Of a stretch of DNA of 64,000 nt, positions 35,406 to 57,049 are shown piece after piece (within the stretch, counting starts at the first letter, position 1; every line of letters starts with the position of its first letter). This DNA is from a virus (lineage: Duplodnaviria; Caudoviricetes). Position numbers and translations under genes: made by a program. Below the pieces are notes generated by a model that was not told where the DNA came from, searched no databases, and was given only the letters and a program-made list of their open reading frames with translations. The DNA lies in IMG/VR virus record IMGVR_UViG_3300044477_000030, positions 1 to 64,000 of that record; one strand, given 5' to 3'.

Positions 35406-36332
35406 TTAGATACCGTAGCCCCAGCCGACAGACAGTGGGTAGTAAACAATCACACCGCCGCAAGAAGCCTGGCATGGGATGTTGTACTCAGTGCCTTCCT
35501 TATCGGCTTCGAATTGCTCGAAGGTCTCTGGGATCTCCAGAGTAAGGTGCATTGGATCACGGGTGTACATCATGATCATCTTGGTCGAACCAGTACCGGC
35601 GGTATTGAGTTCGTTCACCCAATCCCACTTTGTTACCATTGGGAGGGCGTCCTTGACGAATTGCAGAACGGTCTTGTCGGAGCCGTCACCCATACGCTTT
35701 GTGGCGATGAAGTTCATGCTCTCAAGAGGCATAATGCAAGTATCTGGGGCTTCGAGGCCGTTGGTGATGGCGTTCACGGAAGACCAGAGACCGGTGATGT
35801 CGCGAGCGATCTGGTCGGCAGTCTTGTGAGCCCAGGTCTTCACACTGCCCGTACCATCAGCGACGATGGTGTATTCGTGCAGACCTGGATAGCCGATCAA
35901 GCCCTTGAGGTTGCTGGTGGCATCACCGTTCCATGCGATCGCGTCGATCTTCTGGTCGATGGCACGCTTTGCAGCTTGAGCCCGGCGGGTATCGAGACCC
36001 TTTTCTGCCATCTGGGAGGCACGGATTTCCTTGATGGAGTAACCATAGGAAATACCGATGTCCTTCACCTTGACGGAGGTTTCGGTTCCATACACATCCA
36101 CGCGAGGATAATCCTTGGCGTAGTCTGCGATGATCTTGGCAACACCAACCATGTCATAGACGCGATAGGTGATGGTTTCTGCGCCACGATTGACACGGGA
36201 CACAGGAATAAGGCTCGTGGCCTTGAGCTGACTGTGCTTCACATCGTAAGTGGCGGTCTTGACAACTTCCAGCTCGCGGGTGAAAAACACGGTCTCGTCG
36301 GCATCGAGCTTCATGGCATTCTTGGGATTCAT
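35406..36332 (-). CDS. Major capsid protein (DUF2184-like, HK97 fold)
   Basis: GAETITYRVYDMVGVAKII, IGISYGYSIKE, AWNGD...GL..YP, GVIVYYP. Confidence 0.92.
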   Translation of the reverse strand: MNPKNAMKLDADETVFFTRELEVVKTATYDVKHSQLKATSLIPVSRVNRGAETITYRVYDMVGVAKIIADYAKDYPRVDVYGTETSVKVKDIGISYGYSIKEIRASQMAEKGLDTRRAQAAKRAIDQKIDAIAWNGDATSNLKGLIGYPGLHEYTIVADGTGSVKTWAHKTADQIARDITGLWSSVNAITNGLEAPDTCIMPLESMNFIATKRMGDGSDKTVLQFVKDALPMVTKWDWVNELNTAGTGSTKMIMMYTRDPMHLTLEIPETFEQFEADKEGTEYNIPCQASCGGVIVYYPLSVGWGYGI

Positions 36333-36344
36333 GTTAGCTCCTTA

Positions 36345-37034
36345 TTACTTGATGATTTCGACGCGAGCAAGAGCAGCGCCGGAGGTTGCGGTGCGGAACA
36401 CATAGCCGGTGGTCACATTGCCACTGGAGTCGTCGGTGAACACGCCGGAAGCGGCCACCAGGTAGGCGGTCGCGTTGGCAACAACTGCGTCTGCGGTCAT
36501 CACCCACATTTCGCCTTCGCGGACGATCGGTGTGTTGTCGTACTGGTTGAATTGTCCACCAACCTTCTGTACGCGAGGGAACACGCCAAACACGGAACCA
36601 GTGCAGGAGAGAACCTGGCTGGAAGTTGCCTGGGATGCGCCGAGAGTGACAGCTGCCACCACGGTGATCGCGGAGTGGTCATCCATGGAGATGTTGATGG
36701 AACGGCCTGCTCCAGCGGTTGCGGTCACATTGGCCAGACCATTGATCGCGGCAACAACGGCTGCGAAAGTCGTGGCGTGGTTGGTGTCAAACACCACAGG
36801 AGTGATCGCAGTTCCGTCCACACTGACGGCAATGGAGTTGGATGCGACGAAATCTGCGCTGAAGGTCAGCACGGACTTGTCGAGGACATACTGGAACACC
36901 TTCTCGGCGTCACCAGAGAAAACAACTGCGGGCATACCGAAGTTGCATTCATTGCCAGCTACTCGGGAGACGACTTCGGCATCCCCGACCAGAAGCCCAG
37001 CGAGGGCAGAATCAATATTACCATAAGCGGTCAT
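36345..37034 (-). CDS. Head decoration/cement protein with inserted beta domain
   Basis: Immediately before the capsid gene; VREGEMWV pattern; insertion at about aa 53-143. Confidence 0.8.
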   Translation of the reverse strand: MTAYGNIDSALAGLLVGDAEVVSRVAGNECNFGMPAVVFSGDAEKVFQYVLDKSVLTFSADFVASNSIAVSVDGTAITPVVFDTNHATTFAAVVAAINGLANVTATAGAGRSINISMDDHSAITVVAAVTLGASQATSSQVLSCTGSVFGVFPRVQKVGGQFNQYDNTPIVREGEMWVMTADAVVANATAYLVAASGVFTDDSSGNVTTGYVFRTATSGAALARVEIIK

Positions 37035-43542: not shown

Positions 43543-43678
43543 TTTGAGATTCCTATATGGAATAATACAAAAAATTGAGCTAAACCATCTCAAATTTCTT
43601 CACCCATCCACCCTATTCCACCCTGTAACGTCGAAAGTGCGCAAATTTTTGTATAATGGTAGAAGAAAAGGAGTGTGT

Positions 43679-44161
43679 GTGGAATTCGAAAAGAACCAGA
43701 TTGTCGTCGCCAAGGAGACCGTCGAGGAACTTGGACTCTATGTTGGTCACGAGTACATGATTGATGATGTCTTTGGAGATATGTATCTTTTATCTCCAAA
43801 TGGACAGAATTATGCATTCTCTCCTTCCGCTTGGGCTAGTGCATCTCAACTCCGCGCTCTCGGTGAACCAGAATCCAAAGAAAATATCTATTGCGAATGC
43901 GATGTGTGTTCCGAAGATCACATCCACCGGGAAGGAAAAGAAGATCCTGAATTACAACCTGTTGCCAAGAAAAAGCCTTCATGTGAAGAAGTATTCAAAT
44001 TGCTGGACGAATGGAACCGCAAGATGGAATTGGACATCTTTGTCTTAGAAGACACTCTCGCACAGCAGGAAGAGACCAAAACTCTAACCGATGCAATTTA
44101 CTATACTTATTGGTTCTCCATTGCTGTCTCTCTGTTCATCTTCGCGGGGATAATGCTATGA
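43679..44161 (+). CDS. Hypothetical protein with C-terminal TM helix
   Basis: Promoter motif 43648-43657, AAGGAG RBS, GTG start. Confidence 0.65.
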   Translation: MEFEKNQIVVAKETVEELGLYVGHEYMIDDVFGDMYLLSPNGQNYAFSPSAWASASQLRALGEPESKENIYCECDVCSEDHIHREGKEDPELQPVAKKKPSCEEVFKLLDEWNRKMELDIFVLEDTLAQQEETKTLTDAIYYTYWFSIAVSLFIFAGIML

Positions 44162-44457
44162 TCACCCAGCTAGGAACTCCGGTCGTCTGCATTTCCCCAA
44201 ATCTGCATTGCCGATGCAATTCTCCAGAAAAGCTCATATATCCCGGAGTCGGTCAGATTCTCCGAATTTCTGCAATTCGACGTCTTCCAGATCGCGGACG
44301 CACCGAAATGTTCTTCTCGTTCTTCGGGATGCCGGATGGTCTGTTTTTTCAATCGAACGGTTTCCGAGCAGCAAAGGTCGAGGATCTGAAATTCGAGGAC
44401 TATATGACTCATCTCATGGCCGGTTGGATCTATGGTGACAACGAGGCCAGTGTATGA
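44158..44457 (+). CDS. Hypothetical protein
   Basis: ATGA overlaps on both sides. Confidence 0.6.
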   Translation: MITQLGTPVVCISPNLHCRCNSPEKLIYPGVGQILRISAIRRLPDRGRTEMFFSFFGMPDGLFFQSNGFRAAKVEDLKFEDYMTHLMAGWIYGDNEASV

Positions 44458-44603
44458 AGGTTCTCGCAATCGGAATGCTTGTTTATAGTTTCGCGCTGAT
44501 GGGACTTATGGCCATCCGTCAAGCAATTAAGACGTCTGAATTCATGCAACGGAATCACTACTCGATGCAATATTACATCAATTCTGTAAAGGAATGGCCA
44601 TGA
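44454..44603 (+). CDS. Small membrane protein (49 aa)
   Basis: GAGG RBS; hydrophobic N-terminus; ATGA overlaps. Confidence 0.45.
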   Translation: MKVLAIGMLVYSFALMGLMAIRQAIKTSEFMQRNHYSMQYYINSVKEWP

Positions 44604-44696
44604 TAGATCCCAAGAAGAAAATCATCAAGGACGATATCTCCAAAGAAAAAGATCCTCCGAAGAAAGATCCTCCGAAGAACCAGCACGGGACGAGGC

Positions 44697-45155
44697 ATGG
44701 ATAAGAAAATCCTGCTATTTTCCGTGGATGTGTGGAACAGAGATAGTTCCGATGTTGTCTGTGGGAAATTTATAAATGCTCTAACCAGCAAGTTCAATTT
44801 CAATTGTCAACAATCGCCTATCGACAAAGCCGGTCTTTACCACCCAATATTCGGAGATAGAATATCTTTCTATCTCACGGAAAAAGAAATTTCACGAGAA
44901 CCAGAAACATCAATCAAGGAAAAAGCAATGAAAGCACTCACATGGCTCCTCAATCTCATCAAGCCCGCCAAGAAGGGCAAGAAGAAAAAGACATCCGAGA
45001 CTCGGGCTCGCAAGCCAAAGAAGAAAAAGATCCTCTATACCGGCATCCAGAACGGGGATCCACAGATCGCTCCTATTTCCCGCACACCGCAAGATGACGG
45101 GAGAGTGATTGTGACCGACGACGCCATAACCGATCTTCCATTTGGTCGCACATGA
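44697..45155 (+). CDS. Hypothetical protein
   Basis: GAGG RBS; Lys-rich C-half. Confidence 0.6.
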   Translation: MDKKILLFSVDVWNRDSSDVVCGKFINALTSKFNFNCQQSPIDKAGLYHPIFGDRISFYLTEKEISREPETSIKEKAMKALTWLLNLIKPAKKGKKKKTSETRARKPKKKKILYTGIQNGDPQIAPISRTPQDDGRVIVTDDAITDLPFGRT

Positions 45156-45406
45156 ACAAGGTCTTCATGTGGCTCCGTGTCACAAACCCCAGGGATTGCG
45201 GAGAGCTGGTCTTCATTGGAAACCTTCCATTCGATGCCATCATGCAATTCGTGAGCGAGCACCGTGAAGGCAAGTCTCCAAGCGAGATCGACGAGGTGAT
45301 CGCCGCGATGGTGGCTGTACCGGCCATCGGTCTCATTGCGGCAGACCAGGCGACAGGTGGAATCGTTGGCGACGCCATCGGCACGTTCCTGGACATTTTC
45401 TTCTAA
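45152..45406 (+). CDS. Hypothetical protein
   Basis: ATGA overlap; 84 aa. Confidence 0.6.
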   Translation: MNKVFMWLRVTNPRDCGELVFIGNLPFDAIMQFVSEHREGKSPSEIDEVIAAMVAVPAIGLIAADQATGGIVGDAIGTFLDIFF

Positions 45407-45429
45407 TCCATCAACCAAAGAAAAGCTCA

Positions 45430-46407
45430 ATGTTCAAGAAACCAAAACAAGTTGCAGTAAAGCCAAAATTGTCCGATTTACCCGATTGGGTGAACCGTTT
45501 CGACAATTTCTTCATCACCGGCTCCGTCCGTTTCGGTTGCGAGACCGACGAAAGCGATCTGGATGTCGTTCTTCCGATCTGGGAAAGAGAAGACGTGCTC
45601 AAGAGCATAACCCGAAAAGACGACATGGAGGAATCCAAGTACAACGTCGGGGTGAAGATCACAAACGAACGTGGTGCAAAAATCAACTTCGTCTTCCTGC
45701 ATCCCCTGGACTACGTTTCCTGGAACAAGGCCGCAGAGATGATCGACCTCTCCAATCTGTTCCGAAACAACCAGACTATCTGCCGCCCACTCCGCCATTC
45801 CATCCACGAAGCTCTCTGCGCAGCAGTCAAGACTTCCTTCTCTGGCCACACCGTTCTCAAAGACAACATGACCGAGTTCCTGACCAACGGGCCAAAAGAA
45901 GAGAAGTCATCGACCATCATCAGCATCGAACCACCAACGAATGGGCAAGACAACGATAATGCCTTTTGGGGGGGACGTGAAGTCCTCTCTGCGGAACTAG
46001 GAACAAACATGGAATCGGCATCAGATACACAAATGGCCTTTTACTATTTTCGTTCAAGACTCGCGGCAGAGACCTTTGCCGTGATTCTCGAACAAATGAA
46101 AGTCTTCGGTCTCGCGAGGGACTATCTGGTCGAAACGCACCCAGACGGTGGAGATCAGGTTTTAAAGTTCACAGTTTGGTACAATACCCTCCAGACCACA
46201 GAGAAGAAAGAGAAAAGAGTATTTGGCGGCCACACAGGTATCTCGGTTATGGATCTTGCCGCCTCCGGTGAACTCCGTGTCAAACTGCGGCATTTGATTG
46301 AATTTGGCCGCATTAAGGAGTTCGATCTGAAGTTCCCTATGCCGTGTTTTGCAGACAGCCAACGTGTCTCAGAACAGTCGAACGGGTACTACGAGATCTA
46401 TTACTAG
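45430..46407 (+). CDS. Pol-beta superfamily nucleotidyltransferase domain plus unknown C-terminal domain
   Basis: FITGSVRFG...ESDLDVVL is the GS-x-DxD signature. Confidence 0.7.
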   Translation: MFKKPKQVAVKPKLSDLPDWVNRFDNFFITGSVRFGCETDESDLDVVLPIWEREDVLKSITRKDDMEESKYNVGVKITNERGAKINFVFLHPLDYVSWNKAAEMIDLSNLFRNNQTICRPLRHSIHEALCAAVKTSFSGHTVLKDNMTEFLTNGPKEEKSSTIISIEPPTNGQDNDNAFWGGREVLSAELGTNMESASDTQMAFYYFRSRLAAETFAVILEQMKVFGLARDYLVETHPDGGDQVLKFTVWYNTLQTTEKKEKRVFGGHTGISVMDLAASGELRVKLRHLIEFGRIKEFDLKFPMPCFADSQRVSEQSNGYYEIYY

Positions 46408-46434
46408 AATCTATCAACATTTTTCCTCTCGCGC

Positions 46435-46463
46435 AGGGCCGGTAGAAATACCGGCTCTTTTTT
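46435..46463 (+). terminator. Rho-independent terminator
   Basis: AGGGCCGGTA-GAAA-TACCGGCTCT followed by a T run. Confidence 0.88.
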
Positions 46464-47487
46464 CGTCGTTCCACTTGTGGCATATTTCAGAATCGCATTC
46501 GAATCTGTTTAAAAATTGCCATTATTCGTTTTCTCTAATATCGTCCATTTTCAGATGGTTTTCTTCCATTTCCAACAATCTATCAACAAAAATCCGCTGG
46601 CCGACATTCCCAAAATTTTTTTTCACAAAAATCGAGCTCCAAAAATCGTGAACATACCCCCATCGGTGAGATTTTTTCCACCCCCAAATACCCACTTTAC
46701 AGCCCATTGGCCAAAACTACCCCACTTAGGTAGCCAAAAGGTAGTAAAGTAGGCTAAAATCGGCCTCCTTTTGCCCGGTTTCATGCCTCCCCGATCCCCA
46801 TCCACCCATCTGCCGGTCTCCTTCTCCCGATTCCAGGCATCCAGCGGCCAGTTTCCCATATCCCAATCCTCCCCGTCTCCCCCATACGGGCTTCCTGTGG
46901 TCAGTTTTCTGGTTTCTGGGCTCTGGCGCGCTCTGCGGGGCGGGAATCTGGGGATAAGGTAACTAGGGTCTGGGATAAAATCCGCTGGGGATGAATGAAA
47001 GTATGGTCTGGACACGGAGTGGTGCGATAGGAGGCCCAAATACCCCCAATACCCCCAAAAACAAAACCACCTACATCTTCCCAAGTTGTTCATCCACCAA
47101 TTTCCCAATCCCCCAAAACATCCCAAGATATAGGAATCTTTTTACTAGGAACTATTTGCCGGTTCGGTTTGGCTTGGATAGGTAGAATTTGCTGGATTGA
47201 GCAGCTTTTGCACTTATGCCCTTGGAATTTATGCTATATTAAGCCTTTTGCCTATTGTGTGCCTTCAATCTGTGCCATATTGGGCAATATGCTATCCATT
47301 GCCTTTGGATCCATGGTATGTTTGGCGCTTTGCAGTGCTATACCTTTTGGCCCTATCCTTTGGAGTGCATAATAATGAAAGCTATTTAGTAGATTTGGCT
47401 ATCCTATGCCTATTATCTTTGATTTGCGGGCCTTTTGTATTTGGGTTATAGGATAATGTCTATGATAGTTCTTTGTTGTATAGACGC

Positions 47488-47519
47488 AAAAAAAGGATAC
47501 CTTTGTTTTGGTATCCTTT
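47488..47519 (-). terminator. Rho-independent terminator
   Basis: AAAGGATACC/GGTATCCTTT 10-bp stem with T run on the - strand. Confidence 0.85.
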
Positions 47520-47539
47520 GGAGTTGGTTTTTCATTGGG

Positions 47540-47776
47540 TTAATTTGGCATCCCCTTTGATAGTTTCCTAAGAATATCTGAAGGAATGTACTTTCTTTTG
47601 TGGGAATTGTATTTTCCCTCATTGCCTTTTATTGGAATCCATTGGAGCTTATACATTTGCGCCCAAGATAGATTTGACCCTTTGCAAATATCCAAGGCCC
47701 AAAACAAAATAGCTTTGTGCTCTGGAAACGAATAATTCTCAATTTCCCCTTTTATTCTATCTTTGTCGAATTTCAT
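47540..47776 (-). CDS. Small early-type hypothetical protein
   Basis: ATGA overlap; last gene before the terminator. Confidence 0.6.
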   Translation of the reverse strand: MKFDKDRIKGEIENYSFPEHKAILFWALDICKGSNLSWAQMYKLQWIPIKGNEGKYNSHKRKYIPSDILRKLSKGMPN

Positions 47777-48036
47777 TGTTTGACCTCTTCGAAGACGTAA
47801 CCTTTCACCTTTTGTTCCTCAATCGAAAGTCTTTTAAGTGTTCTTTGGGTTATTAGTCCGTGTTTTCCGTTTGCTTCGATTGAGTAGATTTGGGCGTCCT
47901 TGTCAATGGTGTACACTTTGAAGCTCGACATAGTTTGACCGAAAAAGCGCAAAGTTTGGCGACTGAAGAAATATTCTCCCAAATTTGAAGAATACTTAAT
48001 GTCCGAAATTGTGGGCTTTCCATGTTGCAAGCTCAT
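47773..48036 (-). CDS. Small early-type hypothetical protein
   Basis: AGGAG RBS; YFFSRQTLRFFG motif of a recurrent phage early-gene family. Confidence 0.7.
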   Translation of the reverse strand: MSLQHGKPTISDIKYSSNLGEYFFSRQTLRFFGQTMSSFKVYTIDKDAQIYSIEANGKHGLITQRTLKRLSIEEQKVKGYVFEEVKQ

Positions 48037-48038
48037 AT

Positions 48039-48425
48039 TCAACACTCCTGGAAAAGTTCCAATTCTTGTCTTGACATCAAAGAAAGTATTCTTTTTGTGT
48101 TTTCTGCTATTTTTTGATATGTATTGAATGCATTGATTGAATCATTTGAATAGCCGCAATCATCGCAAAAATCATTAAAAGAACAATCGGCCAAAGAAGT
48201 ATCCAAAGCTAAACATTCCAAAAGATCTTCAATCTTTGGACGTTCTTTTCTTCCTTTTCCAGTAAAGAACTCAAACTTTTGAGAATTCCCCATTATTCCA
48301 TTTTTGGAAAGCTCAAATATCCAAGCGTTGGAATTTGGGAAATTTTCGTTTATTACTTCAGTTGGACGAATTTTCCAATTCAAGGCATTCAAAACAGATT
48401 CTTTTGTGCAATTTGCGTTTTTCAT
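48039..48425 (-). CDS. Small early-type hypothetical protein
   Basis: P.IEDLLECL...SFNDFCDDCGYSNDS motif of a recurrent phage family; AAGGA RBS. Confidence 0.75.
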   Translation of the reverse strand: MKNANCTKESVLNALNWKIRPTEVINENFPNSNAWIFELSKNGIMGNSQKFEFFTGKGRKERPKIEDLLECLALDTSLADCSFNDFCDDCGYSNDSINAFNTYQKIAENTKRILSLMSRQELELFQEC

Positions 48426-48445
48426 GGTTTTAGTCCTTTTTGATG

Positions 48446-48646
48446 TTAAAATCCAACATAAACATAATAAACCGAAAAATCCTCATACTCCTCAAATTTT
48501 CCCATATCGGCTTGGTAATTTTGGAGAATTTGAGCTATTTTGGATTGTTTTGGTAGTCCTCCTACTATTTCCACCATAAGCCTAGAAATATAGGATTCTG
48601 TCAATTCGTCAGCCTCGTTCCATTTACTGAAAATTCTAAACAACAT
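48446..48646 (-). CDS. Small hypothetical protein
   Basis: AGGAG RBS before ATG 48646. Confidence 0.5.
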   Translation of the reverse strand: MLFRIFSKWNEADELTESYISRLMVEIVGGLPKQSKIAQILQNYQADMGKFEEYEDFSVYYVYVGF

Positions 48647-48656
48647 AAAAATTCTC

Positions 48657-49025
48657 CTATTTGCCAAAAAATAACTTTCTAAGTTCCTTAGTACTTCTTA
48701 TTTCGACGCATTGGACAACGTCATAAGAGTAAAATTCATCTTGCCATTCTTCCTTTTGTTCTTCGGTATATTTTGGATTTTCATTCTCAAACTTCTCAAA
48801 CTCCATTTCCTCAAATTGGGTTATTGCTTCTTCGTCACAAGAACCAAAAACTAAATTAGTCCCATAGACCCCTTGCAAGGCATAAAGTTTATCATTCCAA
48901 CATTTGTACTTTGTGATGTATTTCAGTGAATAAACCAAATCACCAAAAGAATCAATAAAGGGAAAACGAATTTTTACAGAAATTGGGTATTTTGGTTCCT
49001 TGCCACAAATAAATAGAGTAAACAT
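48657..49025 (-). CDS. Hypothetical protein
   Basis: GAGG RBS; acidic 122 aa. Confidence 0.7.
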   Translation of the reverse strand: MFTLFICGKEPKYPISVKIRFPFIDSFGDLVYSLKYITKYKCWNDKLYALQGVYGTNLVFGSCDEEAITQFEEMEFEKFENENPKYTEEQKEEWQDEFYSYDVVQCVEIRSTKELRKLFFGK

Positions 49026-49102
49026 GAAAACCTCTTGCTAAAGGTAACAAAGCGCAAAGACAATAGGAAAAAGGTAAATCAATGCGGCATACATGGAAAA
49101 CC

Positions 49103-49231
49103 TCAAAAGGTTAAAAAGAGAAAATGGAATTCTAGGGACTCTTTAGGCATTGGCTTTTTTGGGCCTTTGAAAGCGCAAAAAACACAAGCAAGTCCAAACA
49201 ATACAAAAGGAACGCTAATGAATAAAATCAT
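49103..49231 (-). CDS. Small membrane peptide (42 aa)
   Basis: TAATG overlap with the upstream stop; MILFISVPFVLFGLACVF. Confidence 0.35.
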   Translation of the reverse strand: MILFISVPFVLFGLACVFCAFKGPKKPMPKESLEFHFLFLTF

Positions 49232-49467
49232 TATGCTACCACAAAGAGAATGTTTTCCAGCTCTTCAGAAATTCCGCTTTCCCCGAAAATTTCTTCGAAA
49301 CTTTGGGAAATTGCTTCTTTGTCGATAGTTGGAACATTTCCGGTGCATTCGGCAATTTTTGCCGCGACATAGTTAGCAATTCCAAAAGCCACATTATTTT
49401 CTATGGCAACTGCCATAGAATTTTCCAGTTCTTGATTATGCATTATCGATAGATTGATGTGCGTCAT
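49231..49467 (-). CDS. Small hypothetical protein
   Basis: GAGGA RBS; downstream of the sigma54-like promoter at 49502-49518. Confidence 0.65.
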   Translation of the reverse strand: MTHINLSIMHNQELENSMAVAIENNVAFGIANYVAAKIAECTGNVPTIDKEAISQSFEEIFGESGISEELENILFVVA

Positions 49468-49501
49468 AGATTTAATCCTCTTTTGCGGTCATCCCATATA
49501 T

Positions 49502-49518
49502 AGCTAAGTCCGTGCCGT
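49502..49518 (-). promoter_or_regulatory. Sigma54-like -24/-12 promoter P3
   Basis: - strand ACGGCACGGACTTAGCT, GG-N10-GC spacing, 35 nt before ATG 49467. Confidence 0.55.
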
Positions 49519-49818
49519 TTGCCAAGTGCTATATATGGGCCTCTATATATCCCCACAAAAATGCGTTGTCCAACTTTGCTCTTGTGTGGGCAAATATTTC
49601 TTACACTAGGATTTTAGGCAAAAGTTTAATAACTTGAGATTCTTGATCTCAAATAAAAGCTCAAATCTACTATCATTTGGAATAATGGTGTTTAAAGCTC
49701 AAAATCCTCATTTAGAAAATGTATGTCATTCGTCGGAAAAAAAGCGGAACTTTTCGTTCCATCTAATTTCTAAAGTTATTAAAAGAACATTAAAAAAAAC
49801 TAAAAAGTTGGCTAAATT

Positions 49819-49973
49819 TGCGCAGAATAGCCGAAAAAATTATCGTAACTTTTTGTTTCATCAAATAACTAAAAGTTCTCCACTTTATAGGAAATTTCCT
49901 CAAATAGTTTTGTTTTCTGCGCAGAATAGCCGAAAAAATTATCGTAACTTTTTGTTCCATCAAATAACTAAAA
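49819..49973. repeat. 56-bp direct repeat x2 (period 99 bp)
   Basis: TGCGCAGAATAGCCGAAAAAATTATCGTAACTTTTTGTTYCATCAAATAACTAAAA at 49819-49874 and 49918-49973, one mismatch. Confidence 0.95.
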
Positions 49974-49999
49974 ACTGGACTATTCTACAATAGTCCTTT

Positions 50000-50022
50000 T
50001 CGGCATGGAATTTGATTATACT
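50000..50022 (+). promoter_or_regulatory. Variant sigma54-like promoter P4 (GA instead of GC at -12)
   Basis: TCGGCATGGAATTTGATTATACT, same GGCAYG core as P1-P3; points into non-coding DNA. Confidence 0.35.
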
Positions 50023-50183
50023 CTTTTAGTCATACCTTGGATTTAAGCTAAAGAAGCTAAGGCACTATTCTCATTTGGTATAGTGCTATTTAGCTCAAAT
50101 TGCTCAAATCCATGGTCAAAGTTCTCAAGTTCCTATAAATACTAAAGTTGGTTTGGCGTCACGGGGCCAAGTGCAGCTAACCC

Positions 50184-50253
50184 CGATTGACGATTGACGA
50201 TTGACGATTGACGATTGACGATTGACGATTGACGATTGACGATTGATGATTGA
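50184..50253. repeat. Heptamer tandem array (CGATTGA)9 plus one degenerate unit
   Basis: Read directly; abuts the stop codon of 50257-50442. Confidence 0.97.
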
Positions 50254-50256
50254 TGA

Positions 50257-50442
50257 TCATTCCTTCCTTTCTCTTTTCTTCACAATTCGATAAGGGTATT
50301 GTGGCATATTGACAAGATAATCCCTTTTCACCTTTTTTGCCTCTTGCCAAGTCCCTTCAGTGCAAACGCATTCCCACCCATTTCCAAATCCGTAATTACA
50401 CTGAAGCTCGAATACATCAATGGTTTTCCTTGTGTATTTCAT
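50257..50442 (-). CDS. Small conserved phage protein
   Basis: RKT.D.FELQCNYG.G.GWEC...E motif of a recurrent phage family; AAGG RBS. Confidence 0.75.
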   Translation of the reverse strand: MKYTRKTIDVFELQCNYGFGNGWECVCTEGTWQEAKKVKRDYLVNMPQYPYRIVKKRERKE

Positions 50443-50678
50443 TTGGATACCTTCCCTTTCTTTTCCTCTTCAAAAGTTGCTGCTATTCTTGGGCGGTCAT
50501 AGATGCCCATTTTCAAATCCTTTGGAGTAAACCCAAGCCAAATATGTTCATTCCCCAATCTAAAAAGATTGTGAATATTGCATATGTCAATAGCCCTTTC
50601 GATGGTTATTCCCTTTTGTTCCAAGAATTCAGTTCTTTGACCGTTTTCGTACAATGTTGCCATTCTTAGCGTTCCCAT
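50439..50678 (-). CDS. Small hypothetical protein
   Basis: AGAGGA RBS; ATGA overlap. Confidence 0.65.
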   Translation of the reverse strand: MGTLRMATLYENGQRTEFLEQKGITIERAIDICNIHNLFRLGNEHIWLGFTPKDLKMGIYDRPRIAATFEEEKKGKVSK

Positions 50679-50707
50679 TGTGCTATCCTCTTTTGATTTG
50701 CAGCTAA

Positions 50708-51430
50708 CTACTTAGCAATTTCCGTTCCATTTTCTTCCTGCAATTCTTTCCAGTATTCAGGTATCAATTCGCAATGGTAATACTGGTCAATGTACAAATC
50801 TTCGCAATAATAGTAGAAATTGATATTGGCAAAATCGTGCAAATCTTCGCCCTTTTCCTTCCAAATGATGTAATGCAATGCCGTGCCAAGGCAATAATCA
50901 ATTTTATCATCCAAGGCAAGGGCATGGAACCAATCGTATTCATCATGAGGAACAAAGGAAATAAAACCGTCACGGCTTTTCCAAGTATCATGCAACCAAG
51001 CAAAAAATGCCGTATTTCCCAAGGCGAATTTTTTCAGTTCCTTGCGAATTTTCCGTACATCACAATGGACGGTAAAATCCATTTCATCCCCTTGGAAGTT
51101 GTATTCCTTTGGGCTCCAATGGGATTTATATTCGATCTTTTCAATGGACGGGAACGCATTCTTCCAATGTTCCAAACAGTTTTCTTCCAAGTAGGAAATT
51201 GCACGCTTGCAAATGTCCTGAAGATAATCGGAGAATTCAAACTTTCCACCGATTACCTTTTCGATAATCTTTTTATGGAACTCTTCAGGAATTTCCCCAT
51301 AGTTTCCATTCTCCAAATCTTCCTTTAGGTTATATTCAAATCTATCATCCTCTAATGCATCGAAATAAGTGCCATAGGTGGAAACGCTAACAACACGGCA
51401 TATTCCAGTGTTCAATTCGATCTTTTTCAT
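50708..51430 (-). CDS. Hypothetical protein (240 aa, acidic/aromatic)
   Basis: SPKEYNFQGD, W.SRDGFISF motifs; downstream of promoter P2. Confidence 0.8.
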   Translation of the reverse strand: MKKIELNTGICRVVSVSTYGTYFDALEDDRFEYNLKEDLENGNYGEIPEEFHKKIIEKVIGGKFEFSDYLQDICKRAISYLEENCLEHWKNAFPSIEKIEYKSHWSPKEYNFQGDEMDFTVHCDVRKIRKELKKFALGNTAFFAWLHDTWKSRDGFISFVPHDEYDWFHALALDDKIDYCLGTALHYIIWKEKGEDLHDFANINFYYYCEDLYIDQYYHCELIPEYWKELQEENGTEIAK

Positions 51431-51463
51431 TTGATACCTTCTTTTTGATTGATGTAAGTATTA

Positions 51464-51480
51464 AGCTAGATTCATGCCAA
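51464..51480 (-). promoter_or_regulatory. Sigma54-like -24/-12 promoter P2
   Basis: - strand TTGGCATGAATCTAGCT, GG-N10-GC. Confidence 0.6.
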
Positions 51481-51651
51481 TCCCAATCCCTTTATTTCGA
51501 CGAATCGGGAAGGCACCACCTGGAATTATTTGCCCCATGGGAAATACTTGCCTGCAATTTATACCCGCATGAACGAAACGAAAACGAAAGGCAAGAGGAT
51601 AGGGCAAAATTGGATGAGCAAAATGGTAGCAACAATTTTCCAAATCATAGT

Positions 51652-51933
51652 TTACTCCTTTATCCCAAAGAATGCCTTGATTGTTTTCCAGTTCTCTACA
51701 TTCTTGTCCGTGCAAATCATGAGAAAACCATTTTTTATTTCGGTATATTGCCAAGGCATTTCGGGCGGAAATTCGGCTGCTACCATGTTCTCCATTCCCG
51801 ACATATCATAATGCCAACTCAAAATCTTTGTTTTCTTCAAATGAGTCGAATGTACGGAAATTCGAGAACCCTTGGTGTTCGTTGCCCCAAGATACTTGAT
51901 TTCAAGGCTTTGCGCATTGTATATTGGTTGCAT
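51652..51933 (-). CDS. Small conserved phage protein
   Basis: I..KYLGATNTKGSRI motif of a recurrent phage early family; AGGAG RBS. Confidence 0.75.
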   Translation of the reverse strand: MQPIYNAQSLEIKYLGATNTKGSRISVHSTHLKKTKILSWHYDMSGMENMVAAEFPPEMPWQYTEIKNGFLMICTDKNVENWKTIKAFFGIKE

Positions 51934-51937
51934 GGTA

Positions 51938-52129
51938 TCATTCTCCTTTTGTCCAGAAGTTCCCAAGTGTTAATCCCCTTCCCGTGGACTTAATCGGGAA
52001 TTGGGATGCCCTTTTTCCAAGATCGAAAATCCCCTTGGATTGTTGATAGGCTTGAATCAATGCTTCTTTAGCGGGAAGATTGAAAATCAATTCTTCCATG
52101 GTGTTAGTGTTGAATACTTTTGTTTGCAT
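51938..52129 (-). CDS. Small hypothetical protein
   Basis: AAGGA RBS; LPAKEALIQAY. Confidence 0.65.
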   Translation of the reverse strand: MQTKVFNTNTMEELIFNLPAKEALIQAYQQSKGIFDLGKRASQFPIKSTGRGLTLGNFWTKGE

Positions 52130-52272
52130 TTGAAATCCTTTGGCTTAATAACCGAAATAGATTACTATTGACTGACGGGAATGGTTGAAAGTGAATGAGT
52201 GTAGAAACTTTGGGCTTTCTTCCCTGAAGGCCCAAAAATTCCCATATGAATCGAAATAGGCACTTAGCAGCA

Positions 52273-52587
52273 TCAAGTCAAGACCCATTTAATAGATTCA
52301 AAATCCTTTCTCGAAAGCGGAAACTTTTCAGCCTTATTGTAAACAAAAGCCAAAACATTTTGCCCTATACCGTCATGATTCACACTCTTTGGTCTCTCAT
52401 TCCATGCAGTCAACATTTTCAAGGCGATTACTTTCGAGTCCTCGTCTCTCAAATAGATATATCCGGCGTCGTTTGCTTTCAGATAATCGAGGCAAGCAAC
52501 ATACACGGCCAATGGGCCTTTCCCCTTTGCATCCTTGATTTCCTGCAATTCTGCAATTTCCTTGATTCTTGTCTTTGTGATGCTCAT
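52273..52587 (-). CDS. Hypothetical protein
   Basis: AAGGAAGGA RBS; downstream of promoter P1. Confidence 0.7.
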   Translation of the reverse strand: MSITKTRIKEIAELQEIKDAKGKGPLAVYVACLDYLKANDAGYIYLRDEDSKVIALKMLTAWNERPKSVNHDGIGQNVLAFVYNKAEKFPLSRKDFESIKWVLT

Positions 52588-52620
52588 TCGATCCTTCCTT
52601 TTGAGTGATGCAAAGTATTA

Positions 52621-52637
52621 AGCTAGATTCGTGCCAA
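52621..52637 (-). promoter_or_regulatory. Sigma54-like -24/-12 promoter P1
   Basis: - strand TTGGCACGAATCTAGCT with perfect TGGCACG -24 box, GG-N10-GC. Confidence 0.6.
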
Positions 52638-52780
52638 TTCAAAATGGGCTAATTTGCGCATTTTCCGCATTCATTGCAGGCAATTTCTTCCAATGGGCAA
52701 AACTTTCCTTTCTATTCCAATTTGGACTATATTTCTTGCCTAAAATATCTCAATCTTCCATATAACACAAATCTGGAAAC

Positions 52781-52815
52781 AAAGAAAAAAGGCCACGGGA
52801 TTTTGTCCCATGGCC
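52781..52815 (-). terminator. Rho-independent terminator after the sigma gene and heptamer array
   Basis: GGCCATGGGA-CAAAA-TCCCGTGGCC followed by TTTTTTCTTT. Confidence 0.85.
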
Positions 52816-52820
52816 GTATG

Positions 52821-52881
52821 CGATTGACGATTGACGATTGACGATTGACGATTGACGATTGACGATTGACGATTGACGATT
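52821..52881. repeat. Heptamer tandem array (CGATTGA)8 plus a partial unit
   Basis: Read directly; overlaps the TAA stop of 52880-53386. Confidence 0.97.
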
Positions 52882-53386
52882 ATGCAAACTCATATGCCAG
52901 TTCGCAGGCCAGGTTCTTGCGAATCTTACGATAGAGTTCCTTGTGCATACCCACTGGCCGTCCGAGTCCCTGGGCGATGTTGGAGACCACTTCCGCATCC
53001 TCTGGAGATAGAGTGGAGATTAATGATTCAAGTTCGAGCTGCTTGAATGCAGGATCTTCTACGCCAATGCGGTCTTCGAGAGTTTGAATGTGGCCTTCGT
53101 CGCAGAATCCAACTTCCGTGCTCATCTGGAGAGTATCGGCGTTGATTTGGTTTTCCGCGCTCTTTGGATTGGCCATGTGAGAAAGACGCATCAGGGAGAA
53201 ACCAAGGTGGGAACTGAATGATGCCTGGGAAGGATCGAATGTGGCGCACGCATTCATGAAGAGTACATTGGCCTGGGACTTGCAATCATCGAGAGCGATG
53301 CCGTACTTAACATGGGCCTGCCATGCCTTCTGGTTGATCATTCTCTCAAATTGACGATAGAGCTTGTTCATTTGTGTGGTTTCCAT
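52880..53386 (-). CDS. Sigma70-family (region 2-like) RNA polymerase sigma factor, short
   Basis: LYRQFERMI..KA......DDCKSQA..LF..A..TFDPSQASFS resembles region 2; LSPEDAEVV start of region 4. Confidence 0.6.
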   Translation of the reverse strand: METTQMNKLYRQFERMINQKAWQAHVKYGIALDDCKSQANVLFMNACATFDPSQASFSSHLGFSLMRLSHMANPKSAENQINADTLQMSTEVGFCDEGHIQTLEDRIGVEDPAFKQLELESLISTLSPEDAEVVSNIAQGLGRPVGMHKELYRKIRKNLACELAYEFA

Positions 53387-53414
53387 GGTGATCTCCTTTG
53401 TTTGTTTTGCTTAT

Positions 53415-53450
53415 GAAACAAAAATACACCCCGTTTCCGAGGTGCGTATC
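53415..53450 (-). terminator. Terminator after primase
   Basis: ATACGCACCTCG-GAAA-CGGGGTGTAT imperfect hairpin followed by TTTTGTTT. Confidence 0.6.
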
Positions 53451-53482
53451 ATTTTTTTTTCAAGCCAATAGTCCAAGTCGGA

Positions 53483-54406
53483 CTAATAGAGATCCAACCG
53501 CAGTTCCTCGGCCTCTTTCTCTGTCAAATCGCCACAATCCCTGGGCTCTCCCTTCGCATTCAATCCGAAATCTGCTTCCACCACACTTGCGGATCTCCCG
53601 CAGGCTGCAAGCTCGCGGGCATAGGACAATGCCTTGGCCTGGGCTTCTGGCTCCGGGTCGAATAGAAAGATGATCTCATCCCAATTGGAAAGCAGGCGGA
53701 TCTGTGCGTTGGTCATAGAGGTGCCATAGGAGCACGCAAATCCCCTTCCCATGCGCCAGGCATCAAAGATACCCTCCACAACAACAATGCGCCTGGAGGT
53801 GGCCAAATGCGCCCCGTAGAGGGTTTCTTTATAATGCATGAGGCATTTTTCCACGGATGGGAACTTGTACCGGTGCTCTTGCTTGTTGGTGATGTCGCGC
53901 CCTTGCCAAGCCACGATTCGTCCATGGAGATCGTGCAGAGGAATAATGATGCGCAGTTGGCAGTCCTCGCCCTCCCAATATTCCATTGGGCCAGTGCCGA
54001 GGATTCCGTATTCGGAGGTCAGGTGATCTGGATCGAAGCCACGACCTTCTATGTATCTGCGATGCCGTTCATTCAATGGCTCGCCTGGAATGGTAATTGA
54101 CGATCGGTATGTGATCTGCTCCTTGACTTGTAGAACCGATTTGCCTTGTCCATCGTTATATTGCTCAATAATGTCCTCTGCTTCGGAATCTGCCACATGG
54201 AGTAGTTTTACGATTAACGATTTGAGTGATCCAGATTTGCAGCGCCAACAAGACACCGATCCGCTTCGAGGATTGACTCCGAGGTGATTTGATCTATCCG
54301 AACAAAAGGGACAACGAATGTGAACGTGGCCCTCGCGTACATTCTTTCCTGCCGTCCAGCATTGGATCTGGTTGTCTCTGAAGAATCTGTATGCGTCGAA
54401 GCTCAT
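53483..54406 (-). CDS. DnaG-like primase (Zn finger plus TOPRIM)
   Basis: CPFC...H...CWRC zinc finger; IIIP...AWQGR; VVEGIFD and FDP TOPRIM motifs. Confidence 0.88.
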   Translation of the reverse strand: MSFDAYRFFRDNQIQCWTAGKNVREGHVHIRCPFCSDRSNHLGVNPRSGSVSCWRCKSGSLKSLIVKLLHVADSEAEDIIEQYNDGQGKSVLQVKEQITYRSSITIPGEPLNERHRRYIEGRGFDPDHLTSEYGILGTGPMEYWEGEDCQLRIIIPLHDLHGRIVAWQGRDITNKQEHRYKFPSVEKCLMHYKETLYGAHLATSRRIVVVEGIFDAWRMGRGFACSYGTSMTNAQIRLLSNWDEIIFLFDPEPEAQAKALSYARELAACGRSASVVEADFGLNAKGEPRDCGDLTEKEAEELRLDLY

Positions 54407-54699
54407 TAATAAAAATGCCCATTCAAATTATTAATTAACAAAATGAGATCTTTGTCTTCTGGATATTTCTTCGTCAAAGATCTTAGCGCTGTCCGTATCT
54501 CTTCTCGGGTTGGAAAAAACTTTTCTTCCAGTGATCGTCTCGCATTACCAATCGCATCTTCAAGCTGACAAGGCTCAATACAAGAACCATGAAATACCGC
54601 AACCGATAGCTCACATTTCATGGTAGCAGTCACCTTGCTAACACCCGGAGCCGTCGGCCCGATCACATCGAACGAAACCCATTGATCAATCACACTCAT
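54406..54699 (-). CDS. Hypothetical protein
   Basis: TAATG and ATGA couplings. Confidence 0.6.
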   Translation of the reverse strand: MSVIDQWVSFDVIGPTAPGVSKVTATMKCELSVAVFHGSCIEPCQLEDAIGNARRSLEEKFFPTREEIRTALRSLTKKYPEDKDLILLINNLNGHFY

Positions 54700-55130
54700 A
54701 AGTCCTCCAAAGGTTTGCTGAAAAAGTCATAAGCATCGGACACATCTGTGTTGATACGGTTTGGCGTATTGCGCGATTGGCGCAGGCACTTGGGAATCCT
54801 GGCCTTGTTCTCGTCTTCGAGCTTCCATCTTCCCTTCGTAAACACACCCTTGTTGATCTCTTCATCGCCGAATGGAACGGGATACACATCCCAATAGATG
54901 CGCTTCTTGATCAGTCCTAGATTTTGCAAGCGCTCGAACTTATGCCGCGCCTGGTAATATGTGCCACCCTCAACACTCTGAAGTTGCTTGTAACTAAAAG
55001 TAGGATGCGTCTTGAGATAATCGTAGAGCTTGCGCAGATATGGTGGAAGGCTGACACCATCCCACAACGCAGGGACGGCGACGCCTTTGCGCTTCTTGTT
55101 GTATCTAGTGGGATCGTACTTCTTTGCCAT
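54696..55130 (-). CDS. Putative winged-HTH DNA-binding protein
   Basis: LRKLYDYL...FSY..L......YQAR...ERLQNLGLI pattern; GGAG RBS. Confidence 0.55.
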   Translation of the reverse strand: MAKKYDPTRYNKKRKGVAVPALWDGVSLPPYLRKLYDYLKTHPTFSYKQLQSVEGGTYYQARHKFERLQNLGLIKKRIYWDVYPVPFGDEEINKGVFTKGRWKLEDENKARIPKCLRQSRNTPNRINTDVSDAYDFFSKPLEDL

Positions 55131-55236
55131 GATCACTCCGAATAAAAAGTCCCGGCTCTGTGAGGCTGTGCCGGATCAGCCATGCCTGTGAGTGTCCAAA
55201 AAGACGAACTATTGTCGTCTCGTTGCACCCTCGCCG

Positions 55237-55542
55237 TCAATGATCGCAGGCTCGATCACCTTGTCGTCCGTTGTCCATGGCCGAACGATGGGCTTTCTTA
55301 TATAACAAATAAACAAGCAAGACGATGTTGAAGACATAATTCAAATGCAACGGCCATTGAATGATCCCAATGGATATATTCTGCCAGATGACATAGATCC
55401 AAGTCAATACTTCACCGATAAACCAAACCAGAAGGAAATACACAGACAATGCCTTGGTGTCCTGTGTCTTCCACACTTTGATAACTTGTGGTAGAGCACA
55501 GAAAGCAAGGCACAGGGCGCCTATTGTTCCAATGACAAGCAT
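55237..55542 (-). CDS. PQ-loop/SemiSWEET family transporter
   Basis: IGTIGALCLAFCALPQVIKVWKTQDTKALS, three TM helices, LNY motif. Confidence 0.85.
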   Translation of the reverse strand: MLVIGTIGALCLAFCALPQVIKVWKTQDTKALSVYFLLVWFIGEVLTWIYVIWQNISIGIIQWPLHLNYVFNIVLLVYLLYKKAHRSAMDNGRQGDRACDH

Positions 55543-55739
55543 GATTGCCCGAAGAGTTCGAGTTGGTCTTTCTTCACAGGTTCTTCTTGGTTGATCTTCA
55601 CCACACCATCCCAATCCGCAGGCACATTGGGAGAGTCTTCGAAGTTCCCACAAGTGCAAGCACGAGCAAAGTTGGCGTTGGTTCCAAATCCAGCGTGGTG
55701 CTCGACTTGGAACATTTCCTTTCCACAATCACATTGCAC
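55521..55739 (-). CDS. Small Cys-containing hypothetical protein
   Basis: GTG start; CDC...CTC. Confidence 0.45.
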   Translation of the reverse strand: MQCDCGKEMFQVEHHAGFGTNANFARACTCGNFEDSPNVPADWDGVVKINQEEPVKKDQLELFGQSCLSLEQ

Positions 55740-56151
55740 GGTTGGCCTCCAATACTTTGAGTTTGCTCCAAGCGCGGATTGCCTCTGCACGGGTTGCCTT
55801 GTGTGGGCCTTGAGCCTGGCATTCGCAGCAGACAACAAACCATTCATTCTTAATATTCACCACATTGGGATCGCTAACAAGATCGAATGGGCAGGCAGGG
55901 ATGATCTTCTTGGATGACTTCCTTTCAGATGTGGACAATTTTACCACATCCTCATCTCCTCTGTAATATCCCAATCCTTCTTGACAGATACCCCCACAAC
56001 CATGAAATATCGAGCGCACTGTTCTTTCATCCATCTCAAGGCACAAAACTCCAGCGGAAGTTCGTCCCTTTACCGTTCCAATCCTTCCGACCATTTTCGA
56101 ATGAAAATCATCGGACATAACCCTAACTCGATCACCCTTATTGAATTTCAT
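55729..56151 (-). CDS. Lar-like (restriction alleviation) zinc-ribbon protein with N-terminal SH3/KOW-like domain
   Basis: C-terminal PACPF...WFVVCCECQAQGP..ATRAEAIRAW; N-terminal KFNKGDRVRV. Confidence 0.65.
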   Translation of the reverse strand: MKFNKGDRVRVMSDDFHSKMVGRIGTVKGRTSAGVLCLEMDERTVRSIFHGCGGICQEGLGYYRGDEDVVKLSTSERKSSKKIIPACPFDLVSDPNVVNIKNEWFVVCCECQAQGPHKATRAEAIRAWSKLKVLEANRAM

Positions 56152-56411
56152 AGCTTGGCCTCCAGACCCTCGGGGGAGCACCACCACAGATTGCGTTCTT
56201 CTGGCCCGGTCAATCCACCAGCGGAGTGCATATATCCATTCCGCGATGGGATTTTGACAAGCACGAGGACATTGCAGCAATCAGGAAAGTCGTCGAACTT
56301 TTCGGTGCAGACAACTTCGCCTTCGATTGTGTCTTCTCCGAAGTTAGGGATTCCGTTGATGGACACATTGACCATCACTTGCATTTTTTCGCGAACATCA
56401 CAAATACGCAT
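56148..56411 (-). CDS. Hypothetical protein
   Basis: ATGA overlap. Confidence 0.55.
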   Translation of the reverse strand: MRICDVREKMQVMVNVSINGIPNFGEDTIEGEVVCTEKFDDFPDCCNVLVLVKIPSRNGYMHSAGGLTGPEERNLWWCSPEGLEAKL

Positions 56412-56490
56412 GGTTAGCCAACCCGGTTGAATGTGTACTTTGCCGAGGCAGCAATAGATGCCACCAACCCGATAACTAAAAGAACTTCGA

Positions 56491-56832
56491 TCATTTTGAT
56501 TCCTTGGTTGATGAATTAATTTCTGAATATGCTCCGATTTCCTTCAGCACATCTTCAAGCATCCAGATCGCGAACAAGGCTGTTTGCCCGATGCGTCCAC
56601 GGTAGGTATTCGATGTCCGAACGGATTCAATCTTCTTGCGGATGGCCTGGATTGCCAGATCATATTTAACCCTCGTCCTATGCGCTTCGCCTTGCAATTC
56701 GTTGCATCGGATTTGAAGTTCATTGCAATCATGGAGAAAATTAGCAAGAACACTAGCTTTCCCTGCTTGCCTCGCAGACTTATAGAACCCCTCAAGCTCG
56801 GTCGGGACATATTTTTCCTTTGGTTGATTCAT
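56491..56832 (-). CDS. Hypothetical coiled-coil protein
   Basis: GGA RBS; ATG 1 nt after upstream stop. Confidence 0.6.
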   Translation of the reverse strand: MNQPKEKYVPTELEGFYKSARQAGKASVLANFLHDCNELQIRCNELQGEAHRTRVKYDLAIQAIRKKIESVRTSNTYRGRIGQTALFAIWMLEDVLKEIGAYSEINSSTKESK

Positions 56833-56833
56833 A

Positions 56834-57025
56834 TCATCCATCCTGGTTGAGCAAAAGCGTTGGAGGCATACCGAATTCGGACATGGCGATGATCTTACTG
56901 AACATCGCATCCCGCTGCCGACATTTATCTTCAGCTTCGTGCATGGTCGGAATAGAGTGCTGATGAATTTCCAGTGTTCTAAGTTCACGCTCCCAATCGA
57001 AATATGTAATCAGAAAATGTCTCAT
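56834..57025 (-). CDS. Small hypothetical protein (probably leaderless)
   Basis: TATTAT followed 6 nt later by ATG. Confidence 0.6.
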   Translation of the reverse strand: MRHFLITYFDWERELRTLEIHQHSIPTMHEAEDKCRQRDAMFSKIIAMSEFGMPPTLLLNQDG

Positions 57026-57049
57026 GCCTACATAATACAATTCCAGCCC

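Follow-up and report, generated by a model that had tools for sequence, protein, structure and literature searches.

How are the small genes of an AT-rich island in a tailed phage transcribed, if the promoter type found in the rest of the genome is missing from them? The island (47540–52900) lies in a stretch of 64,000 nt, hereafter the window, which corresponds to bases 1–64000 of the 76,658-bp virus record IMGVR_UViG_3300044477_000030 (Caudoviricetes), a genome bounded by 127-bp direct terminal repeats. A single public run, a sediment metagenome from which it probably came, is listed as containing the island, and no RNA run is; the virus is referred to below as the sediment phage. An original prediction had placed about 13 small genes of this region behind promoters of the sigma-54 type (-24/-12), or alternatively behind a new promoter class served by a phage sigma factor encoded next to them. 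Four -24/-12 cores were identified here, each at nearly the same distance from a start codon. Judged from their sequence, we give an even chance to the reading that they are activator-dependent promoters of the host sigma-54.

Placement of the -24/-12 cores

Sites were scored against an external consensus, TGGCAC-N5-TTGCW, and were called core-intact when GG-N10-GC was unbroken and the mismatches were two at most. The cores of the island are the following:

52621..52636, minus strand: P1 core, TGGCACGAATCTAGCT, 1 mismatch to TGGCAC-N5-TTGCW, with ATG 52587 34 nt on
51464..51479, minus strand: P2 core, TGGCATGAATCTAGCT, 2 mismatches, with ATG 51430 34 nt on
50714..50729, minus strand: P2b core, TGGAACGGAAATTGCT, 1 mismatch, canonical TTGCT at -12, with ATG 50678 36 nt on
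49502..49517, minus strand: P3 core, CGGCACGGACTTAGCT, 2 mismatches, with ATG 49467 35 nt on

All four sites display GG and GC doublets 10 nt apart, the -24/-12 arrangement of sigma-54 promoters. Three of them are the minus-strand motifs already reported in the original prediction (52621–37, 51464–80 and 49502–18), which are indeed present there with GG-N10-GC spacing; the ATGs announced 34–35 nt further on were retrieved at 34, 34 and 35 nt, behind ribosome-binding sites of the AGGA/GAGG type. P2b, which overlaps the last codons of a 240-aa gene, is a new fourth site.

The sigma-54-type signal is one of position, not of number. The whole genome holds 19 core-intact sites, and four of them occupy the coding strand of the 5.4-kb island, 34/34/36/35 nt before ATGs led by a Shine–Dalgarno (SD) sequence. 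With a background of 15 other sites over the 153 kb that the two strands make up, and 15 starts with 3 positions each, approximately 0.004 such coincidences are expected. Even with P1 and P2 counted once, and with the choice of the distance window allowed for, the placement of the sites is far beyond chance. A fifth core-intact site (36366–36381), 34 nt before the ATG at 36332, lies in GC-rich coding DNA and was taken as a chance occurrence.

The four cores are not equally independent. P1 and P2 are approximately 80–90% identical from 2 nt before TTGGCA through the ATG (approx. 55 nt, including the 5' untranslated region, 5'UTR); they are one duplicated promoter–leader cassette and, being near-duplicates, count as a single independent instance. 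P3 has in common with them GGCACG, one A, TAGCT and ATA only, and, outside the -24 and -12 elements, P3 and P2b have nothing in common with P1 and P2. The match of P3 is not significant when its overall identity is considered, as approximately 18 equally good 23-mers are estimated to occur by chance; the argument is therefore drawn from the identity of the shared positions and from the location of the sites. GGCAYG-N4-TAGC has three matches in the entire genome, namely P1, P2 and P3. Readings of the motif as a sigma-70 element (a -35 TTGGCA with any -10, a MotA-box-like element, or an extracytoplasmic-function-like GGAAC in P2b) were also tried and were discarded, their spacing being wrong by eye.

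Upstream repeats and a proposed host activator

The regions preceding the cores contain a repeated element, of which two long copies were delineated:

52673..52702, minus strand: 30-nt element upstream of P1 (TTTGCCC ... TTGCCTGCAA), 80% complementary to the P2 copy
51529..51558, plus strand: the same 30-nt element, inverted, 51–80 nt upstream of the P2 core

Counted from the GG, the element (TTTGCCC ... TTGCNNGCAA) stands 38 nt upstream in P1 and, in inverted form, 51 nt upstream in P2, whereas the two cores are in direct orientation. A related arrangement, TTTGCCC-N8-GCAAA, is found 59 nt upstream of P3, and copies of TTTGCC lie in the P3-proximal spacer at 49589–94 and 49617–22. TTTTGCC is the only 7-mer common, on either strand, to all four 130-nt upstream windows, and none of 300 shuffles (0/300) shared any 7-mer. 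TTTGCC itself occurs six times in these four windows (520 nt) for 0.5 expected, an approximately 11-fold excess. Such repeats, in both orientations and 40–135 nt upstream, resemble the activator sites of sigma-54 promoters.

These features suggest the following mechanism. The island would be an accessory module, foreign in composition and divided into four transcription units; each of these would have at its head a promoter with GG at -24 and GC at -12, read by the host RNA polymerase carrying sigma-54. Since closed complexes formed with sigma-54 do not open by themselves, an AAA+ enhancer-binding activator would be needed, and the TTTGCC repeats, lying 40–135 nt upstream in either orientation, would be its likely docking sites. 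Transcription is predicted to start approximately 12 nt after the GC, that is near 52610 (P1), 51453 (P2), 50703 (P2b) and 49491 (P3), giving SD-led leaders of 23–25 nt. The remainder of the genome, including the gene for a phage sigma-70-family factor, would run on promoters of another type, (T)TTGTATWAT. Such an organization suggests that a stress or nutrient regulator of the host, and not the usual phage promoter, turns the island on; sigma-54 binding, the existence of a host activator and conditional expression are all inferred from the letters of the genome.

The origin of the activator was sought in the phage itself. The original prediction that no AAA+ enhancer-binding protein is encoded in the window was borne out on the scale of the whole genome: the only match to PF00158, by a DNA_pol3_delta2 clamp-loader-like protein, scores 14.9 bits and is below cut-off, and neither a GAFTGA motif nor an RpoN box was found in any frame. 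The genome likewise displays no sigma-54 domain, and no open reading frame (ORF) long enough for a single-subunit RNA polymerase. With sigma-54 and a bacterial enhancer-binding protein (bEBP) both missing from the phage, host factors would be needed, and the host would have to supply the activator.

The same lack of an activator could be read differently. Closed complexes of sigma-54 are stable without an activator, and the sites might bind the holoenzyme without ever being activated, serving as roadblocks, as insulators or as a small sink for the host sigma-54. However, a sink would require more than four sites, the cores are all oriented with the genes and stand at a promoter-like distance from an ATG, and the upstream repeats suggest activation; we therefore regard such a role as very improbable.

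As regards activated sigma-54 promoters, the original reading has gained from the TTGCT of P2b, the shared -24/-12 blocks and the TTTGCC repeats; the original interpretation as a whole is partly supported. Several observations weigh against sigma-54 promoters. Sites with up to two mismatches are not enriched across the window (41 versus 34.3 ± 6.0 in shuffles); the independent sites are three in number, P1 and P2 being one duplication; every site carries one or two mismatches, and three of the four have an A at -14 (TAGC). P3 lies within a perfect 12-bp inverted repeat (49528–39/49493–504; RNA fold z score -2.1), which could be an operator instead, or an operator laid over a promoter. TTTGCC matches no verifiable activator site and was picked after seeing the data, so that its p-value is inflated. 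Dependence on an active host activator would also be a demanding design for a phage. Finally, no relative carrying the island was found.

This last point rests on several searches. By blastn, the island had no match among phage records, and the phage has no DNA match among isolated phages. Searches of IMG/VR for close relatives, using the sigma factor, its best homologue, the primase-like protein and a 128-aa island protein, returned none. The 20-nt motif gave seven single hits in IMG/VR, judged to be at about chance level; the 22-mer of P1/P2 gave 0 hits in Joint Genome Institute (JGI) metagenomes, and the sigma alignment none in metagenomes. Distant relatives are known at 41% identity (sigma) and 55% identity (portal). 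Sigma-54-like sites were not enriched in 80 portal-profile loci (approx. 1 Mb) or in five whole sigma-bearing relatives. As to the host, the portal displays at most 31% identity to isolated phages, of varied hosts, and at most 33% to bacterial genomes, of several phyla; an Atlas look-up of the lysozyme and look-ups of clusters yielded no names.

The neighbouring sigma factor and the island's units

Directly upstream of the island, a gene for a sigma factor offers a second candidate for the recognition of the cores:

52880..53386, minus strand: phage sigma-70-family sigma factor, 168 aa, with a short C-terminus

Its product is a true sigma-70-family factor in which region 2 is present. Indeed, a full HMMER scan retrieved 61 relatives; 30 of the 41 homologues tested matched Sigma70_r2 (Pfam), and the homologue profile matches RpoS, RpoD and FliA chains in the PDB (E 4e-7 for RpoS and RpoD). 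In the AlphaFold2 (AF2) model, the predicted local distance difference test (pLDDT) exceeds 94 over residues 1–72, the C-terminal part being of low confidence; the top Foldseek matches are all sigma chains, with weak E-values. Sigma70_r4, the helix-turn-helix region involved in -35 recognition, was matched by only one of the 41 homologues. The phage protein spans positions 1–144 of the 178-position profile and ends exactly at the first of two heptamer arrays described below, and no remnant of the missing C-terminal piece (approx. 34 positions) was found within 44–58 kb. The island may have been inserted into the 3' end of the sigma gene, clipping its C-terminus. Five IMG/VR phages that carry this sigma and a related portal have neither a GGCAYG-N4-TNGC site nor an array after the sigma gene.

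The usual promoter type of the phage, (T)TTGTATWAT, has 20 copies across the genome for approximately 4.7 expected (e.g. at 1745, 5143, 8821, 25461 and 62778). Its TG directly abuts TATWAT, without a -35 element, and many copies stand 6–7 nt before an ATG, so that the mRNAs of many genes are probably leaderless. The island is devoid of this motif, as had been noted: there is no TGTATWAT from 43650 to 57039. The sigma operon itself starts at a TTGTATTAT promoter (57039), so that the main sigma of the host is the simplest candidate for reading this type. One of the five relatives, G010, uses TTTGCTATAAT eleven times in place of (T)TTGTATWAT. Several TTTGTATWAT promoters are also preceded, 20–30 nt upstream, by the palindrome TCCAAWTTGGA, which stands approximately 85 nt upstream of P1 as well; four exact copies (1714, 52716, 57920, 58170) were counted for an estimated 0.05 or so expected, with variants at 5102 and 8790. 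A phage regulator probably uses this palindrome as its operator.

These data bear on the alternative advanced in the original prediction, in which the motif would be a phage-specific promoter, read by the host core polymerase with the adjacent sigma or by an otherwise phage-modified polymerase, its likeness to sigma-54 being coincidental. In its favour, the sigma gene is directly adjacent to the island, shares its strand and encodes a genuine family member and, with nearly all other genes (its own operon included) on one promoter type, the phage sigma is left without an obvious target. However, the conserved blocks, as read from the sequence, are 4 nt apart, which misfits the -35/-10 geometry of sigma-70-family recognition, and no common -35 could be aligned; on this ground we consider the alternative quite unlikely. 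It is further weakened by the five relatives, which bear the sigma and lack the motif, by the loss of the last 34 or so profile positions from the phage copy, and by P2b, whose match is to the external consensus of sigma-54 and not to the TAGCT variant.

Returning to sigma-54 promoters, the genes that they would serve and the elements that delimit them are listed below:

52791..52815, minus strand: intrinsic terminator closing the sigma unit, 10-bp stem and T-run
52821..52881, unstranded: heptamer array (CGATTGA)x8.7, beginning at the sigma stop codon
51560..52587, minus strand: P1 unit, four ORFs of 104, 63, 93 and 28 aa (52273–52587, 51938–52129, 51652–51933, 51560–51648)
50708..51430, minus strand: P2 unit, a single 240-aa ORF of unknown function
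50257..50678, minus strand: P2b unit, a 79-aa and a 61-aa ORF that overlap; phrog_34889, unknown function
50184..50257, unstranded: heptamer array (CGATTGA)x10.6, beginning at the stop codon of the 61-aa ORF
49520..50183, unstranded: non-coding spacer of approximately 660 nt, with a 99-nt repeat x2.3 and several hairpins
47540..49467, minus strand: P3 unit, eight ORFs of 78, 42, 18, 122, 66, 128, 87 and 78 aa
47492..47519, minus strand: terminator ending the island

The genes are thus small and on the minus strand, as first described, and number 15 ORFs rather than about 13, three of these being hydrophobic mini-ORFs of 18–42 aa. Compared with Pfam, PHROGs and the Atlas, the island proteins matched only families of unknown function: phrog_3199 is the sole family match of the P1 unit, phrog_4273 (unknown function) and a weak DUF7447 are the only ones of the P3 unit, and the 240-aa ORF of the P2 unit has no family in Pfam or PHROGs and no usable Atlas match. 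No function can be assigned from these matches, and the early or host-takeover role first proposed for the genes is accordingly conjectural.

Because the terminator at 52815–52791 closes the sigma unit, the first island gene requires a transcription start beyond it. New initiation is thus needed both at P1, which follows this strong terminator, and at P3, which follows the hairpin-rich spacer. Such initiation could nevertheless take place elsewhere, the cores not being promoters: weak sigma-70-like promoters upstream, or read-through, would then transcribe the units, and the blocks would be operators of a regulator, from phage or host, or leader elements. Two candidate promoters, TTGAGA-N16-TATAGT (52753–52726) and TTGAGA-N18-TAAACT (49652–49623), indeed lie approximately 90–105 nt upstream of P1 and P3; yet sigma-70-like matches are fewer in the island region than in shuffles (13 versus 17.2), they are not of the usual phage type, and P2 and P2b have none upstream. 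The absence of a terminator before P2 and P2b would accommodate read-through, and the perfect inverted repeat around P3, as well as the TCCAATTTGGA palindrome, which is used elsewhere in the genome and is found upstream of P1 too, would suit operators. For an operator, however, a constant distance of 34–36 nt to the ATG combined with the exact geometry of an external consensus is unexpected, and a leader element is at odds with the lack of RNA structure signal in the 5'UTR regions of P1 and P2 (z scores +0.7 and +1.5). On balance, this explanation appears unlikely.

The island also stands out by its composition. Its G+C content is 0.373, against 0.490 in the remaining sequence, which agrees with the AT-richness first reported. 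A comparison of restriction-site density retrieved only seven GATC sites in 47540–52900 (1.3/kb, approx. 0.4 of the composition expectation) versus 7.6/kb outside, about twice the expectation; CCGG is likewise scarce in the island. The island thus has either a different sequence history or a different restriction pressure. Elsewhere in the phage, Pfam matches include a tape measure, a portal (PF06381), a DUF2213 head protein, an SNF2 helicase, a primase-like protein, SbcCD-like proteins and the clamp-loader-like protein.

In a more specific form of the sigma-54 reading, the island would be a horizontally acquired cassette of a lytic-type phage, wired through its TTTGCC sites and sigma-54 cores to one host enhancer-binding protein, so that its ORFan genes, possibly counter-defence or takeover functions, would fire only with that pathway on, e.g. 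in an infection-triggered membrane-stress or RNA-damage response. To this complete scenario we assign a low probability.

Some elements of the island and its surroundings were recorded in their own right. The two (CGATTGA)n arrays bracket the P1, P2 and P2b units; CGATTGA repeated four times or more was also found in 13 stretches on 12 unrelated IMG/VR contigs, on most of which it forms iteron-like clusters of ATCGTCAA repeats beside AT-rich runs. It looks like a protein-binding site (of the origin or partition type) rather than an island-specific element. Between the second array and P3, the 99-nt repeat x2.3 (49748–49972), accompanied by terminator-like hairpins, could be an origin, a small RNA set or further regulator sites. 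The approximately 1.1 kb that separates the plus-strand genes from the island terminator (46410–47540) contains one dubious W/G-rich ORF of 156 aa (46623–47093; GC 0.53, no family match) and may be non-coding. An 81-nt tRNA-Val with the unusual anticodon AAC was called by ARAGORN at 2170–2250; Rfam at its gathering threshold reports none there, and the call is doubtful. The Rfam scan of the window returned no family.

Comparison with known systems

The timing of phage gene expression is normally ascribed to the host sigma-70, to phage sigmas or to phage polymerases, and experimental support for the use of sigma-54 by a phage is, to our knowledge, limited to phage YuA. If true, the mechanism suggested here would tie phage gene expression to the physiological state of the host, through sigma-54 and an activated host regulator, and would explain how accessory genes plug in together with their own control unit. 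By itself the island is a modest addition, with four sites and no relatives.

Among phage sigma-70-family factors, T4 gp55 and phiEco32 gp36 serve promoters reduced to a -10 element. The sediment phage resembles these systems by its small sigma with a confident region 2 and by a uniform -10-type promoter (TTTGTATWAT) genome-wide. It differs from them in that TTTGTATWAT lies outside the island and precedes the sigma gene itself, so that the host sigma probably reads it, and in that the island motif is not -10-like.

Enhancer-dependent sigma-54 promoters of bacteria follow TGGCACG-N4-TTGCW, with activator sites upstream (e.g. the regulons in PMC3844500, PMC2831329 and PMC4641369). The island sites share with them the GG-N10-GC arrangement, with one or two mismatches, an AT-rich stretch after the -12 block, and repeated upstream sites in both orientations 40–135 nt away. 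They depart from them by TAGC for TTGC at -12 in three of the four sites, and by a TTTGCC repeat that corresponds to no activator site that could be verified.

The closest comparison is with Pseudomonas aeruginosa phage YuA, described in PMC5053324, citing Ceyssens et al. 2008, as strictly requiring the sigma-54 of its host, and in which a sigma-54-like promoter, P015, was mapped by ONT-cappable-seq (PMC10914365). The original remark that such control would be unusual for a phage is thus fair, although YuA provides a precedent (PMC5053324, PMC10914365). As far as these accounts portray YuA, both are tailed phages without a sigma-54 or a bEBP of their own, in which sigma-54-like promoters stand beside other promoter classes. 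The case of YuA, as reported there, is experimental, whereas that of the sediment phage is made from sequence. The two phages are moreover unrelated, the sediment phage having no DNA match, and a portal at most 31% identical, to any isolated phage; and in the sediment phage the sites are confined to one AT-rich island, in which four units share an upstream repeat. The use of sigma-54 by a phage is already reported for YuA; the island contributes a well-shaped hypothesis on an orphan genome.

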